In this document: positions 1 through 5,551 of the stretch, piece by piece
Numbering within the stretch: position 1 is the first letter of the stretch
Layout of the letters: the number at the start of each line of letters is the position of its first letter
Origin: a virus
Taxonomy: Duplodnaviria; Heunggongvirae; Uroviricota; Caudoviricetes
Direction: 5' to 3' (one strand)
Virus record (IMG/VR): IMGVR_UViG_2778261534_000003
Length of the DNA stretch: 5,551 bases
Program-made: the position numbers and the translations under genes
Notes under the pieces: generated by a model
Databases searched by the model: none
What the model saw: the letters and a program-made list of their open reading frames with translations, nothing else
Told to the model about the DNA's origin: nothing

Positions 1-26
1 TGACAAGATGTGTATCTACCTTAACT

Positions 27-50
27 TAATGATTTTGATAAAAATCATTA
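27..50. repeat. 10-bp perfect inverted repeat (taatgatttt / aaaatcatta) with 4-bp spacer gata, 23 bp upstream of the recombinase fragment
   Basis: Read directly: arms at 27-36 and 41-50 are exact reverse complements. Reverse complement of 31-41 is TTATCAAAATC, which resembles (from memory, unverified) the TTATCAAAAAC half-site of Hin/Gin-family crossover sites. Function unknown. Confidence 0.4.
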
Positions 51-72
51 GGGGATTCATCAGTGCTTAGCA

Positions 73-366
73 TTGGGTGGCATTGACCTGACCAGTCCAA
101 CAGGAAAAATGATGATGCAAGTAATTTCAGCAGTCGCTGAATTTGAACGAGACCTTTTACTTGAACGCACTCATTCCGGGATAGTAAGAGCCCGCGGCGC
201 AGGGAAACGTTTTGGTCGACCACCTGTGTTAAATGAAGAACAGAAACAGGTGGTATTCGAACGAATTAAGTCAGGTGTAAGTATAAGTGCCATTGCCCGG
301 GAATTCAAAACCTCGCGGCAAACCATTTTAAGAGCCAAAGCAAAACTTCAGACACCTGACATATAA
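73..366 (+). pseudogene. 5'-truncated serine recombinase (resolvase/invertase family) fragment: C-terminal ~97 codons only (E-helix plus helix-turn-helix DNA-binding domain)
   Basis: Translation ([35 protein letters not shown]...[21 protein letters not shown]) matches the C-terminal half of Tn3/gamma-delta resolvase and Hin/Gin/Pin-type recombinases. The N-terminal catalytic domain with the active-site serine is absent. In-frame stops at 1-3, 22-24 and 49-51, and the other two forward frames are also closed upstream. The ORF would have to start at TTG (73). Confidence 0.6.
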
Positions 367-387
367 AAAATAATCTCGGTGTGAGAT
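361..387 (-). terminator. Weak candidate intrinsic terminator downstream of the stf-tfa remnant: 5-bp stem atctc/gagat (373-377 / 383-387) followed on the minus strand by a T-rich run (complement of 361-372)
   Basis: Hairpin and U-tract read from sequence. The stem is short and AT-rich, so this is tentative; it could equally serve the convergent recombinase fragment poorly. Confidence 0.25.
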
Positions 388-463
388 GCTTTACGTCTTC
401 CAAGCCCCCTTCCTTGCCGTAAATGGAAAGATACATCTAATTATAGAATTTATATGTTTTACC

Positions 464-601
464 CTACGGCAGTGCTGGCCATTCAATATCCGGTACTACT
501 GATGTATTAACACGGTTCAGCAACACCCGATACTTTTTCCAGACTTCCAGCAACGAAGTTTCTTCCTCCGTTGCGATTTCCAGCTCAACAACAGTCTGAA
601 C
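464..601 (-). pseudogene. tfa: 3' remnant of a lambda-type tail fibre assembly gene (Tfa C-terminal ~45 codons), in the same frame as stf and immediately after its stop
   Basis: Minus-strand translation after the stf TGA (638-640) reads [57 protein letters not shown], stop at 464-466. [31 protein letters not shown] is the conserved C-terminus of lambda Tfa as I recall it. No start codon or N-terminal Tfa region is present. Confidence 0.65.
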
Positions 602-637
602 GTACCAGGAACAGCCTCCTTCAGGGCTTGAAGGATA

Positions 638-1075
638 TCAATGTTCGCTTCCTGTTAACTGCCCGACAAGTGCAACCAGTTCGCTTACCTGATTTTCCAG
701 AGTGCTGATCCGGGTGCCTGCTGTTGCCAGATTTTTACGTAGCGTTATGTTTTCCTCTTCCAGCGCGGTAACGCGACCATCTGTTTCACGGGCGACCTGA
801 ACAAGTAACCCCGTCACGGCGGCGTAGTCAACATTCAGATAACGTGTTTCTTCACGTAATTCATTGCCGTCAACCGTTGGTCCCTGCAACTCTTCACCGT
901 AATGAGTAAACGATCCTACAGCTTCTGGTATCGCCTCCATTACTTCCTGTGCAATAACGCCAGCATAAGGCATCCCGTTTTCCCTGAGCGTGTAGGTGTA
1001 TCCGTTCATTTTACGGATTGCTTTCGTCGCGTCGCTGATAACGAGAATATCGTCTTTAAGGTCGCGGTCTGATGA
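638..1075 (-). other. Stf C-terminal intramolecular chaperone / autoproteolytic domain (peptidase S74-like, 'chaperone of endosialidase'), residues ~1058-1202
   Basis: SSDRDLKDDI has the Ser-x4-Lys dyad spacing of S74 chaperones. Hallmark blocks GVIAQEVMEAIPEAV and YLNVDYAAVTGLLVQVARE are followed by a coiled-coil-like tail, and the domain ends at the protein C-terminus as in endosialidase and T5 L-shaped fibre proteins. Confidence 0.7.
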
Positions 1076-4000
1076 CTGATTCAGCGTTGTGCAATTAATA
1101 GCGCCATTTACATCAAACAACTGGCCTGCTGACGTTTTTTGCGCATAAAACAGATACGCAGCAGACGTTCCAACCTCAAAAACGTTTTGTCGATCACTTG
1201 ATCCCCATACTTTTGCGGCAAATGATAGTTCTGTATTACCTAAGTTCTGTAAAACAAAACGATTGCCAGTCCCTGTTTGTTTTGTAAGAGTTAAATCAAC
1301 AGTTGAGTTAACCTCATCCTTGTTGATAGTGAGCGCCTGCGCTTTAGCCCCGTTAACAGCACCTGTTTTGAGTTGAACCGCGCCGTCATTACCATTTAAC
1401 AGTATCTCAGCTCCGCTAAAGAAATTTTTTAGCGACAGCATCTTACTTACGCCGACTGATGAACCCAACGCCCACGCGAGAGAATTACCGGTGCTATCAA
1501 ACCCACGTACAAAGCAATCCATTTTGCTATAGTCTGACGTGCTTCCAAGGACATCAATCCGCCCTCCGCCAGATTTTACCGGGTTAGATGTGGTTAATGA
1601 CCTGACAGCAAGATCGGTAGATGAATTGAGATCGTCTACTGTTAATAGTCGTTTCCATCCCTTATCAACCCCAGCCTCAAAGCTTCTTGCCCAAAATTTG
1701 GAGTTGCGACCGGCGAATTGTGTGACGTAATTACCGCTAAATTGAGCATGGAATCCGCCAACAACCATTGTTCCGTCAGGACCGCCTGCGCTCCCTGCTA
1801 TTGGCTTAAACTTATTTACATTCTCTGTATGTTGAGTGCTCCAGTTTTGCCCTGTGTGAACAACCAATCCCTGATAAGAACTGAAGGTACCATCAAGGTT
1901 AAAATTAAAGAACTTACTGTTCCCTGAATTATTTATGTCCCTGACAACAATTTCACCAGAAGCGTTAGCGGCCCTTAGTTCAGTTTGATCGACAACCGGA
2001 CCTCCTTCGGATTGTAATCTTTGAGAAACAAATGTTCTGTTTGAAGCGTCCGTACCGTACGCGGTGAAAGATTGTGTTGCTTTAATCTGACCATTGTTTA
2101 CAAATATAGGAATAGTGACGGTAAAATTTTTGTCAAAACTCAGGCCATTTGTTAATGCAATCCTTTCTGACACCCCTTGTCTGAACGGAAGGTTGCTGTA
2201 GAAGCCATGTTCACCGCCAGTGAAGTCAAGAACATTTTTAACAAAGTTCTTGTCGTTATCCTCCGTTGACGTTGATACACCAAACTTATATCTAACCCCG
2301 TTGTCACCAATTACGTAGTCTTCTGTTGGAACCTTAACTTTTGCCTTGTAGCCAGTTTGCACAACGACAGGAAAAGCGCTTTTATGGATGTAGAAAGCTA
2401 CATGCTGCGCATAATCTCTTTGCGACGCTTTAATGCAAAGTATCCCGAGTTCATTTTTTTCATAGCAAACAAATGACCCGTAAGCCACATCGCGAACGTC
2501 ACTCCAGCCACCACATCGAATGAACCCAAAAAATGAGTTACTATTAAGCGGATTTGATGCCGGACCTCCTGCTGTTTTTATTTCAACAGGACATAACATG
2601 GCACCGCTCCCATTCATTGCGGATGTGTCTATTATGACAGGGTAGTATTTGCCATCCACTGCACCACCAGGGGCATTAAGGGTCATTGCTTTTGTTAATC
2701 CACCCTCAGGGATTTGCAAATTAGTTTTGGCGTCATCAAGGCTATTTGCGCCAGTGCCACCATGAGAAACATCAAGTGGTATCCATTTTTTTTGTGTGTC
2801 GCTGTAACACCCCCATGTTGATCCGGTTAACCCCAGGCGCATGGATTTATCATGGTTATATAACCATGTTTCGCTATTCCATTGGTCAAGACGGTCCACT
2901 TCATTTTTGCGAGCGTGGCGTGTCCATTGCGGGCCTGTTGTCGGACTCCAGCGATAGGTATAAAGCGAGCGAGTAGTCCATCCCTGAAATACACCTGTAT
3001 ACGCTGGAGTTCCATCTACCTGACTAATAAACCCCGTAAGACTGCTTTCACCGGATGCAATAGACGGGAAACCTGTTGCATCAGCCATGATGCGCATAAA
3101 GCCAATATAACCTGATGGATTTCCTGAGATGTCAGAGCAACCACGCGGTGATGATCCCAAACCGATGTTAGTACCAACAATACCCTGGGCCTGGTTGCGA
3201 TAATTAAGTGCGTCCGCCGCAGATTTCGCCGCGTTTGTTTCACTGGATTTAGCATTAGTTTCGCTGGCTTTAGCGTTGGTTTCGCTGCTCTTTGCTGCTG
3301 CCTCGCTATTTTTCGCGTTGGTTTCTGATTTTTTGGCTGCTGTCGCGGAGTTTGCCGATGCAGTTTGTGAGTCTGCTGCCGCCTGTGCGCTGTTATCCGC
3401 ATTCGTCTCAGACGTTTTTGCGGCCTTCGCGGAATTTCCTGCCGCCGTTGCCGAGGAAGCGGCACTGCTGGCGCTCGAGGCAGCGCTCGTTTCTGATGAT
3501 TTTGCCGCCTCTTTTGAAGCCGACGCATCCCGGGCTGAGGTGGCAGCTTCTGACGCTTTCGTGGTCGCGGTGGATGCAGAAGTGGCTGCTGATTGTTGTG
3601 ATGCTGCAGCATTCGTTTCTGACGTTTTCGCCGCACCGGCACTGGTGGCTGCCGCGCTTTTTGAGGACTCTGCTGCGGCAGCACTTTTTAATGCTTCAGT
3701 GGCCTTTGTTGATGCCGTTCCTGCGCTGGAAGACGCTGACTGAGCCGACGACGCGGCCTGTCCGGCTGACGTGCTGGCTGCGCGTGCTGAGCCTGCAGCA
3801 TCAGTCGCATGGGTTGCCGCCTCACGGGCTGATGTGCTGGCATCGCCGGCTGACTTCTTCGCGGCTGCCGTGTCCTGTGCCACTGCGGACGCGTTACGCG
3901 CCACCTCTTCCACCATCAGTTCAAAACGGCGCAGTGCCTCCGGACGGGCATCATCCTCCGTCATGGCACCGAGAAAATCATTCAGCGTACCCGGTTGAGA

Positions 4001-4240
4001 ATCTTCATACACGGTGATGGTCCCGGCATGTGACGGCGGGAATCCCTCCACCAACAGAATAACGCTGTACTGGCCGTGCTCAACGTCCATGCTGTAACGC
4101 CCTGCTTCATCCGGATTTTCAGATGCCACCGTGTTCACCACCACCGTGGTGCTGTTACGTTTTGCTTTCAGCTGGATTGTGCAGTTCTGTACCGGTTTAC
4201 CTGCACCGTCTTTCAGTACACCTGAAATCTTTACTGCCAT
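638..4240 (-). CDS. stf: Side tail fibre protein (lambda Stf family N-terminus, Ala/Ser/Thr-rich shaft, divergent distal domain, C-terminal intramolecular chaperone)
   Basis: 1200-codon ORF. The N-terminus MAVKISGVLKDGAGKPVQNCTIQLKAKRNSTTVVVN... closely matches lambda Stf. ATG at 4240-4238 gives the lambda-like MAVKISG start; the ORF track's start at 4246 is a GTG two codons upstream. Possible Shine-Dalgarno GGGGTG just upstream. Contains a PLDVSHGGTGANSLDDAKTNL motif typical of phage fibre proteins. C-terminal 145 residues are an S74-type chaperone domain. Confidence 0.9.
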   Translation of the reverse strand: MAVKISGVLKDGAGKPVQNCTIQLKAKRNSTTVVVNTVASENPDEAGRYSMDVEHGQYSVILLVEGFPPSHAGTITVYEDSQPGTLNDFLGAMTEDDARPEALRRFELMVEEVARNASAVAQDTAAAKKSAGDASTSAREAATHATDAAGSARAASTSAGQAASSAQSASSSAGTASTKATEALKSAAAAESSKSAAATSAGAAKTSETNAAASQQSAATSASTATTKASEAATSARDASASKEAAKSSETSAASSASSAASSATAAGNSAKAAKTSETNADNSAQAAADSQTASANSATAAKKSETNAKNSEAAAKSSETNAKASETNAKSSETNAAKSAADALNYRNQAQGIVGTNIGLGSSPRGCSDISGNPSGYIGFMRIMADATGFPSIASGESSLTGFISQVDGTPAYTGVFQGWTTRSLYTYRWSPTTGPQWTRHARKNEVDRLDQWNSETWLYNHDKSMRLGLTGSTWGCYSDTQKKWIPLDVSHGGTGANSLDDAKTNLQIPEGGLTKAMTLNAPGGAVDGKYYPVIIDTSAMNGSGAMLCPVEIKTAGGPASNPLNSNSFFGFIRCGGWSDVRDVAYGSFVCYEKNELGILCIKASQRDYAQHVAFYIHKSAFPVVVQTGYKAKVKVPTEDYVIGDNGVRYKFGVSTSTEDNDKNFVKNVLDFTGGEHGFYSNLPFRQGVSERIALTNGLSFDKNFTVTIPIFVNNGQIKATQSFTAYGTDASNRTFVSQRLQSEGGPVVDQTELRAANASGEIVVRDINNSGNSKFFNFNLDGTFSSYQGLVVHTGQNWSTQHTENVNKFKPIAGSAGGPDGTMVVGGFHAQFSGNYVTQFAGRNSKFWARSFEAGVDKGWKRLLTVDDLNSSTDLAVRSLTTSNPVKSGGGRIDVLGSTSDYSKMDCFVRGFDSTGNSLAWALGSSVGVSKMLSLKNFFSGAEILLNGNDGAVQLKTGAVNGAKAQALTINKDEVNSTVDLTLTKQTGTGNRFVLQNLGNTELSFAAKVWGSSDRQNVFEVGTSAAYLFYAQKTSAGQLFDVNGAINCTTLNQSSDRDLKDDILVISDATKAIRKMNGYTYTLRENGMPYAGVIAQEVMEAIPEAVGSFTHYGEELQGPTVDGNELREETRYLNVDYAAVTGLLVQVARETDGRVTALEEENITLRKNLATAGTRISTLENQVSELVALVGQLTGSEH
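3212..3904 (-). repeat. Low-complexity Ala/Ser/Thr-rich coding repeat region of the Stf shaft (residues ~115-345), including degenerate tandem ~21-nt units encoding K(S/T)SETNA heptads (clearest at 3224-3340)
   Basis: Protein shows AAKTSETNA, AAKKSETNAKNSEAAAKSSETNAKASETNAKSSETNAAKSA. DNA shows reiterated tttagcgttggtttcgctg-like units at 3241-3330. The region is GC-rich and open in several frames. Confidence 0.6.
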
Positions 4241-4249
4241 ATTCACCCC

Positions 4250-4278
4250 ACAAAAAAGCCCGCCTGAACCAGCGGGCT
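4250..4278 (-). terminator. Intrinsic (rho-independent) terminator downstream of lom: 7-bp GC-rich stem (4257-4263 / 4272-4278), 8-nt loop, then a run of six T on the minus strand
   Basis: agcccgc / gcgggct are exact reverse complements. On the minus strand the hairpin is followed by TTTTTTGTG (complement of 4249-4257). It lies about 27 nt after the lom stop and about 10 nt before the stf ATG. Confidence 0.65.
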
Positions 4279-4304
4279 GTCATAACACTGTGTTACCTGG
4301 CTAA

Positions 4305-4904
4305 TCAGAACTTATAACCAACACCCACGATGAACCCGTCAGTGCGCCAGTCGCCACTGCCGGAGCCTTCATAAGCGACATCAATGGCCACCGATTCGGT
4401 CGGGTTAAACTGCACGCCAGCTCCCCACGCCAGAGACGTGTTGCTGTGGTGACCGTCATCACTTCCGGTCAGCACATCATGCGTTTTCCCCTTGTTGTCA
4501 GTTACGCGGAGATAATCCCCGGAGAAAGTCGACACACGGCTGTAAGCCACACCCGCCATCGCATACGCGCTGAACCATTCATTCACGCGCACAGACGGTC
4601 CCGCCATCACGCTGAACCAGCGGTTACGCACGGAATCCTCATGCCAGCGGGTATCGCTGTAATGCGTTTTTTGCTCATCTTCAGCGTTGGCATAACTGAA
4701 TGACGTAATCAGCCCCAGCGTGTCCGTAAACTCATAACGGTATTTCACGTTAATCCCGTTCAGATTATCGCTGCCGGGAGCGTTCGTACGGGCATGAAGA
4801 TACCCTGCGCTCAGTGTGGCCTGCTGCTCAGACGCCCATGCAGGCGCACCGGATACGGCCAGACAGATGGCTGCGGACAAAATGGCTGCATAAACTTTAC
4901 GCAT
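4305..4904 (-). CDS. lom: Lom outer membrane protein (Ail/Lom/OmpX family beta-barrel; lambda lysogenic-conversion 'moron' gene)
   Basis: 199-aa product MRKVYAAILSAAICLAVSGAPAWASE...GINVKYRYEFTDTLG...WRTDGFIVGVGYKF is near-identical in pattern to lambda Lom as I recall it. Has a signal peptide with an AWA-S cleavage motif and a C-terminal aromatic residue typical of outer-membrane barrels. Shine-Dalgarno GAGAGG at 4910-4915, 5 nt upstream of ATG (4902-4904). Confidence 0.92.
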   Translation of the reverse strand: MRKVYAAILSAAICLAVSGAPAWASEQQATLSAGYLHARTNAPGSDNLNGINVKYRYEFTDTLGLITSFSYANAEDEQKTHYSDTRWHEDSVRNRWFSVMAGPSVRVNEWFSAYAMAGVAYSRVSTFSGDYLRVTDNKGKTHDVLTGSDDGHHSNTSLAWGAGVQFNPTESVAIDVAYEGSGSGDWRTDGFIVGVGYKF

Positions 4905-4925
4905 AATTACCTCTCGCTTTTCTGC

Positions 4926-4952
4926 AATAAAAAAGGCGCCATTTCTGGCGCC
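4926..4952 (-). terminator. Intrinsic terminator between J and lom: palindromic stem GGCGCC (4935-4940 / 4947-4952), 6-nt loop, then TTTTTTATT on the minus strand
   Basis: Read directly: ggcgcc atttct ggcgcc, with the A-run at 4929-4934 on the plus strand giving a U-tract on the minus transcript. Begins about 20 nt after the J stop. Confidence 0.65.
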
Positions 4953-4971
4953 CGTATTGGGGTTATAAAAT

Positions 4972-5551
4972 TCAGCTGATACTGATGCCTGCGGTGGCTT
5001 TCTTCATCACCACAACCAGCAAATCGCTGATACTTGCTGTGGGATACCAGTCATTTACCAGCCATGCTGACACCGAAAACTCCAGCGTCATGTGGCCGCG
5101 ACCAGCTGGCATATCAATAACACCACTGTAAATCAGCGTATTATCCAGCGCGGTATGGTTATAAATTTCAGCACCGTTTTTCCGTACTATCAGGCGGCAT
5201 GAGGAGTAGATATCAGTATGATCTTGCTCATGTTTAGCGCCACTGAATGCCACCGCCGGGATAACAATTTGCCGGTCAAACGGCTGATCGTCATAAACCC
5301 TGACGGTAATGGTCCCTGATGGCCACCGCTCCGGTGCACGGGAGTCCCGGGGGAAAGCCTTACCCACTGTTTTGACAATATCACCTTCAATCTGGTTGGC
5401 TGACAGTTTCCCCTTAATCTGACAGTTCTCATTAATCGTGACATTGTTGAGCGTCCCGGCGTTCGCATTCACACTGCCACTGATATCTGCATTTTTAGCG
5501 GTCAGCTTTCCGTCTGATGTCAGGGAAAATACCGGAGGACTGCCACCGCTG
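4972..5551 (-). CDS. J: Host specificity / central tail fibre protein J, C-terminal (receptor-binding) portion; 5' end lies beyond the window
   Basis: The frame stays open from the window edge to the stop at 4972-4974. My translation of 5473-5550 continues [27 protein letters not shown] into [16 protein letters not shown]..., matching the lambda J C-terminal region as I recall it. The listed 166-aa ORF merely starts at an internal GTG. The extreme C-terminus differs from lambda J. Confidence 0.85.

Follow-up and report, generated by a model that had tools for sequence, protein, structure and literature searches.

A 3′ fragment of tfa behind a side tail fibre gene with a C-terminal chaperone in a Qin-type cryptic prophage

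What is the end of a tail fibre assembly gene doing, in frame, behind the stop codon of a side tail fibre gene? The question is raised by a 5,551-nt stretch of tailed-phage DNA (IMG/VR record IMGVR_UViG_2778261534_000003), referred to here in its entirety as the window. The TGA of stf (640-638) is followed on the same, minus, strand by 57 in-frame sense codons (637..467) and then by TAG (466-464). The initial annotation, made from the sequence alone, assigned the last 40 or so of these codons to the conserved C-terminus of Tfa; it proposed that they are the scar of a module replacement and that low-level UGA read-through could append them to the fibre. The count of 57 codons was confirmed and the Tfa peptide quoted there is exact. 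In our analysis 464-600 is very probably a non-functional 3′ fragment of tfa, left behind when the fibre tip was replaced and later serving the incoming cassette as a homology arm.

The remnant and its surroundings

The late-type genes of the window all lie on the minus strand. The list of open reading frames gives the 3′ end of the tip-attachment gene J (ORF 5472..4972) and lom (4904..4305). They are followed by stf (4246..638 including its stop, 1202 aa; ORF and Pfam), a 37-nt spacer (601..637), the tfa remnant (464..600) and, beyond an intergenic region (367..463), the converging serine recombinase gene pinQ on the plus strand. The 3′ 303 nt of pinQ are present (64..366; Pfam Resolvase and HTH_7), the gene being truncated by an insertion sequence of IS10/ISVsa5 type. 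The terminal 63 nt of this element (1..63) are 100% identical to positions 36132-36194 of plasmid R100, which adjoin an IS4-like ISVsa5-family transposase gene. The IS10-type end breaks pinQ after nt 288: window position 64 is nt 289 of the 591-nt pinQ of E. coli TUM1887, where a 100% match starts, and pinQ is uninterrupted at the equivalent site in other strains. TUM1887 is identical to the whole of window 64-5551 (100%), and the window's strain is unlike it solely by the IS10-type insertion in pinQ. The TUM1887 copy sits between ydfJ′-ydfK-pinQ and gnsB-ynfN-cspI, at the site of the Qin cryptic prophage. In TUM1887 the tail genes reduced to truncated pseudogenes include J and the tape-measure gene, thus the window's copy sits in a decayed Qin-type prophage. 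We note a 38-aa ORF with an ATG start (386-502, plus strand) that runs opposite the intergenic region and the last part of the remnant; the equivalent ORF of phage HannyBb carries a hypothetical-protein annotation, and the call is probably spurious.

Residues 14-57 of the peptide encoded after the stf stop match Pfam Caudo_TAP (PF02413; E=8.5e-18, 65.2 bits against a gathering cut-off of 22.1), the match being restricted to profile positions 87-130 of 131; as 146 codons are gone and there is no start codon, this is a gene fragment and not a member of Caudo_TAP in the functional sense. Tfa proteins combine a variable fibre-binding N-terminal domain with a conserved C-terminal helical trimerisation domain (PMC9608196). 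The remnant, 45 codons and the TAG, is the conserved C-terminal helical domain of tfaQ and lambda tfa, so that the assignment of the end of the frame to Tfa was borne out. Across window 61-600, which covers pinQ, the intergenic region and the last 137 nt of tfa, DNA identity is 96.7% to PhiR42_1 and 95.9% to K-12 Qin, the prophage that carries tfaQ; lambda tfa is 85% identical across 474-600. This similarity to tfa is far beyond chance. Alignment to the three tfa genes places the homology breakpoint at 600/601, at about codon 147 of a 191-codon tfa. Relative to tfaQ and the tfa of PhiR42_1, 146 of the 191 codons (the 5′ 439 nt) are missing, including the N-terminal fibre-binding domain, and a scan of the locus for ORFs and starts found no start codon for the remnant, which lies 37 nt past the stf stop on the strand of the fibre gene.

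Intact stf-tfa-pinQ loci with the same flanks exist in PhiR42_1 and K-12 Qin, the intact arrangement at this position that the scar reading had called for. In PhiR42_1 the order is J-lom-stf-tfa, then converging pinQ. BLAST aligns its DNA with window 61-600 and 3399-5010, leaving 601-3398 as the part that differs, and alignment shows the intergenic region 367..463 to be the same as in the intact loci. The differing block (601..3398, minus strand; BLAST against PhiR42_1 and K-12 Qin) stands where the stf 3′ end and the 5′ 439 nt of tfa would be. It carries the 3′ two-thirds of stf, including a foreign receptor-binding region, the C-terminal intramolecular chaperone (IMC), the stop codon and the spacer. 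With both flanks shared with intact loci and a foreign block between them that ends in Peptidase_S74, the proposal of a module-replacement scar is supported. The left boundary of the block, at about 3398, lies within a region of direct repeats in stf (periods 21, 63 and 84 nt; 3231-3865) that encode an Ala/Ser/Thr-rich stalk.

The domain content of Stf bears on why tfa could be lost. Residues 3-136 are Pfam phage_tail_N (E=1.6e-71) and residues 1059-1110, at the C-terminus, are Peptidase_S74 (PF13884; E=2.6e-12). In the alignment to the S16 long-tail-fibre distal subunit (PDB 6f45), SSDRDLKDDI is paired with SSDRRIKKDI. The IMC part (641..1072, minus strand; Pfam and the 6f45 alignment) starts at residue 1059, the Ser that opens the SDRDLK motif. 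The PGAP name of the product is accordingly ‘prophage tail fiber N-terminal domain and S74 family endopeptidase-containing protein’. In T5 pb1 the C-terminal domain acts as a trimeric intramolecular chaperone and is taken off once folding is complete, and by family membership the IMC of Stf is inferred to be self-cleaving as well (PMC4690869). A fibre with its own chaperone makes the fibre-specific N-domain of Tfa redundant, and truncation of tfa would thus be tolerated. Across carriers of the junction the last 40 IMC codons (641-760) hold 2 synonymous and 10 nonsynonymous variants, and the 60 codons before them 44 and 17; the extreme C-terminus of the IMC may be under relaxed constraint.

The first 12-13 codons after the stf stop (601-637) are not tfa. 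A protein alignment put ‘SPEG’ and a Trp of the spacer opposite Tfa residues about 101-115. Local DNA alignment of the spacer to the 5′ 439 nt of tfa was no better than that of shuffled sequences (P=0.33), and its derivation from degraded tfa was rejected. The spacer contains a 6-bp hairpin and AAGGAGG (613-619) with no start codon after it. A terminator or structured RNA was likewise rejected, there being no terminator-like site and a fold z-score of −0.09, and no promoter was found. We also considered an invertible segment of the Pin type. With the published crossover site TTGGTTTGGGAGAAGG as query (PMC12529663), the window gave no match at up to three mismatches and has no long inverted repeats; it holds a single fibre tip and no second, inverted copy of fibre tip and tfa, and this candidate was rejected.

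One junction in many carriers

The stop-spacer-remnant junction recurs base for base in phages mEp460, Ayreon and PhiR70_1, in which the DNA 3′ of the remnant and the length of Stf differ. The same junction is present in 51 IMG/VR contigs and, counted with a 161-nt probe spanning it, at 1382 places in 805 of 5426 complete E. coli genomes (about 15%). In 805 of the 806 matching E. coli genomes the remnant is tied to this IMC 3′ end. mEp044 and SLUR26 carry the closest IMC relatives outside this junction; the spacer is not present after their IMC genes, where the downstream DNA is unrelated. The spacer pattern is also absent from GTDB species representatives, which suggests a junction restricted to E. 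coli strains and E. coli phages. No donor of cassette and spacer was found among these IMC relatives or the GTDB representatives, and it is for this reason that we infer the illegitimate first step of the mechanism set out below. The breakpoint is the same throughout, and judged by sequence all copies appear to be one old event. The initial annotation had taken this point for the right-hand junction of a recombination event. The replacement stands; that it was made in this locus does not, 600/601 being one old junction common to many carriers.

On either side of this fixed junction the homology between the window and other carriers ends at different places. To the right it ends at 503, at 473-478, at 458-459 or runs on into pinQ; the left-hand limits are 1081 (start of the IMC), about 1350-1410, 1606, 1855 or the end of the sequence compared. 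The remnants also carry different tails, including ..PALP, ..PAVPVME, ..PTNPVRE, ..PANPVRE, ..PVAPIG and ..PEEPDTV. At least seven tfa tail families are common to remnants and intact tfa genes in the same sample, and for six of seven families remnant-bearing and intact loci do not differ in the 40 nt past the stop. The simplest reading of these sequence comparisons would be repeated homologous crossovers inside or just beyond the remnant, which probably acts as a passive right-hand homology arm in the spread of the cassette.

The state of the remnant frame has to be read in the same light. One of 36 distinct remnant versions is frameshifted and the rest are open to the natural tfa stop. Such an open frame could suggest constraint; exchange with intact tfa explains it equally well, the near-universal openness following from repeated exchange with functional tfa alleles. 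Our first count of ‘private variants’ in the remnant was distorted by tails with frameshifts or indels and by unsampled tfa families and was not used; the later count was limited to junction-specific codons.

Other scars were seen in the same survey. A second type of tfa 3′ remnant is present in HannyBb (4075-4300) and PhiR63_1 (2419-2640), and also in Tritos. It follows a separate short fibre gene of IMC type and a 99-aa membrane-protein ORF, has a 1-nt deletion and is out of frame. Its tfa homology begins within about 10 nt of the window's breakpoint and it is independent of the window's junction. In three IMG/VR loci (L063, L077 and L139) a 5′ fragment of pin (..KRLQKGDALVVWKLD*..HLVVLV) runs into the tfa 3′ end at EAWKKYRV, both in one orientation, which indicates an inversion or deletion with ends in pin and tfa. 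Another tfa 3′ remnant follows ‘FYIQEF’. Given tfa 3′ remnants with different upstream partners, such scars arise repeatedly. The junction itself has been reworked in IMG/VR 2908572912_000001 (L035; about 3737, minus strand), where a lom-like ORF passes after about 50 codons straight into spacer and remnant (..NGINVKY joined to PSSPEGG..) and the whole of stf is deleted, apparently at an ATATC microhomology. In IMG/VR 2703718837_000003 (L072) a 4-nt deletion immediately before the stf stop gives one long ORF in which stf is fused to an intact tfa; a true mutation or an artefact of assembly may lie behind this.

Selection, read-through and re-initiation

If the remnant is a homology arm, has it been kept as one? 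Selection at the DNA level could have maintained it as a portable arm, or as a cis element making the IMC cassette mobile. The near-invariant linkage to this IMC 3′ end, the many tfa tails and downstream contexts found alongside the remnant, and the truncation of independent remnants close to the start of the conserved block are all in keeping with this. The same pattern is, however, expected without selection, as homology is a precondition of recombination and recombinants that have lost the arm go unseen. Moreover, neither a promoter, a terminator nor an unusual fold was found, no Pin crossover site was found, and chance alone can preserve a 137-nt fragment for long. We regard a selected arm as unlikely, though it fares best among the alternatives to a passively retained fragment.

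Much less probable is a functional UGA read-through that adds a 57-residue Tfa-helix tail to the IMC and so aids nucleation of the fibre trimer. The idea draws on the shared frame, on the remnant frame being open in almost all copies, on the TGA shared by all 55 IMG/VR and phage copies with stf ahead of the junction, and on the C-domain of Tfa being a trimerisation module (PMC9608196). One junction is ancestral to all copies, however, and the shared frame thereby counts as a single one-in-three event; the chance of one in three was already given in the initial annotation and we agree with it. The stop is not invariant either: at the equivalent of 638-640 E. coli 4/2-1 (L173) has TAA, in an stf that is a truncated pseudogene. 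The base after the stop is U, and in E. coli a U in this position favours efficient termination. The independent HannyBb-type remnant is out of frame, and the related IMC fibres of mEp044 and SLUR26 have no such tail. Finally, the IMC is predicted to be cleaved off after folding (PMC4690869), in which case the tail would never be on the fibre. With the extension on a chaperone fragment that would be cleaved off, mass spectrometry of virions is not expected to detect it.

The variants between the stop and the tfa tail bear most directly on translation. The junction-specific codons are not shared with intact tfa genes and are thus not refreshable by exchange with them. Nine distinct variants fall in these 18 codons, all nonsynonymous and none synonymous in the read-through frame. 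For the IMG/VR loci the search pattern itself fixed 30 of the 54 nt; positions not covered by it account for six of the variants, and BLAST-retrieved E. coli copies for the remaining three. In the same loci the final 100 codons of stf have 46 synonymous and 27 nonsynonymous variants, a ratio from which the 0:9 of the linker differs (Fisher p=3e-4), while 0:9 is compatible with neutrality (P=0.10). Between the linker variants, the TAA allele and the predicted placement of the extension on a released chaperone fragment, the suggested read-through found no support. On these sequence grounds we would not expect translation of the remnant beyond a rare leak of the stop codon. That low-level read-through has turned the scar into an auxiliary folding module on the IMC is correspondingly very doubtful; if true, the co-option would explain the open frame in almost every copy.

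A short independent Tfa protein translated from within the remnant can practically be dismissed: the AAGGAGG at 613-619 speaks for it, but there is no ATG, GTG or TTG at a usable distance, the sole in-frame start-like codon, a TTG without a ribosome-binding site, would yield 27 residues, and the linker variants are all nonsynonymous.

Proposed origin of the scar and related systems

The preferred reading, a dead tfa end retained as a passive homology arm, can be put as a sequence of events. A single past illegitimate recombination would have joined a foreign fibre-tip cassette, consisting of receptor-binding region, self-cleaving S74 IMC, stop codon and 37-nt flank, to a lambdoid tfa at about codon 147. 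The same event would have removed the resident stf 3′ end and the N-terminal three-quarters of tfa, whose fibre-binding part a self-chaperoning fibre would no longer require. The junction would thereafter have been inherited within the cassette. Among tfa genes, no domain is better conserved in DNA sequence than the one encoded by the retained 3′ end, which makes this end a ready right-hand homology arm; the left arm would be the conserved stf 5′ end or the IMC. Homologous recombination through both arms could then have carried the cassette into many lambdoid phages and prophages, the present cryptic prophage of Qin type among them.

The closest known counterpart is tfaQ of K-12 Qin, which occupies the same position as the remnant, between stf and converging pinQ. 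The C-terminal peptide of tfaQ and of lambda tfa (orf-194) is the same as that of the remnant over 26 residues. tfaQ has 191 codons, whereas the remnant has the last 45 and lacks start codon and N-domain; the remnant is preceded by the 37-nt foreign spacer, tfaQ and lambda tfa by an stf/tfa overlap. The partial tfa pseudogene QVM92_RS11925 of TUM1887, annotated by PGAP, is the same feature as the window's remnant.

The fibre itself resembles the T5 pb1 L-shaped fibre, the K1F endosialidase and S16 gp37 in having a C-terminal IMC (Peptidase_S74), and by analogy with these the Stf of the window would need no separate Tfa. Unlike them, it has a lambda-type anchor (phage_tail_N) as its N-terminal third. 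Mosaic exchange of tail fibre genes at conserved blocks has reportedly been described for lambda, P2, Mu, P1 and the T-even phages by Haggard-Ljungquist in 1992 and Sandmeier in 1994. As in those genes, a variable receptor-binding module lies between conserved blocks in which crossovers cluster; in contrast to them, the right-hand block here is a dead gene fragment. The A1 protein of Q-beta is a programmed UGA read-through extension, and the TGA of the window is likewise followed by an open in-frame extension. In contrast to the A1 case, the linker of the window shows no constraint of a coding kind, the stop also occurs as TAA, and an extension would be on a fragment that is presumably discarded.

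A search of the literature found no paper describing this junction. In all six RefSeq genomes checked PGAP annotates a partial tfa pseudogene, the entry equivalent to window 464-589 reading ‘tail fiber assembly protein, incomplete, missing N-terminus’. The remnant is in this sense already known and an ordinary feature, and because the fragment is routinely annotated as a pseudogene it carries little weight as a discovery. It is of use as background for the engineering of lambda-type side tail fibres and for the annotation of prophage tail-fibre regions. Its interest lies in illustrating cleanly how receptor-binding modules pass from one lambdoid phage to another, in a case where the dead end of a chaperone gene would still give the homology by which a cassette lands in other stf-tfa loci.
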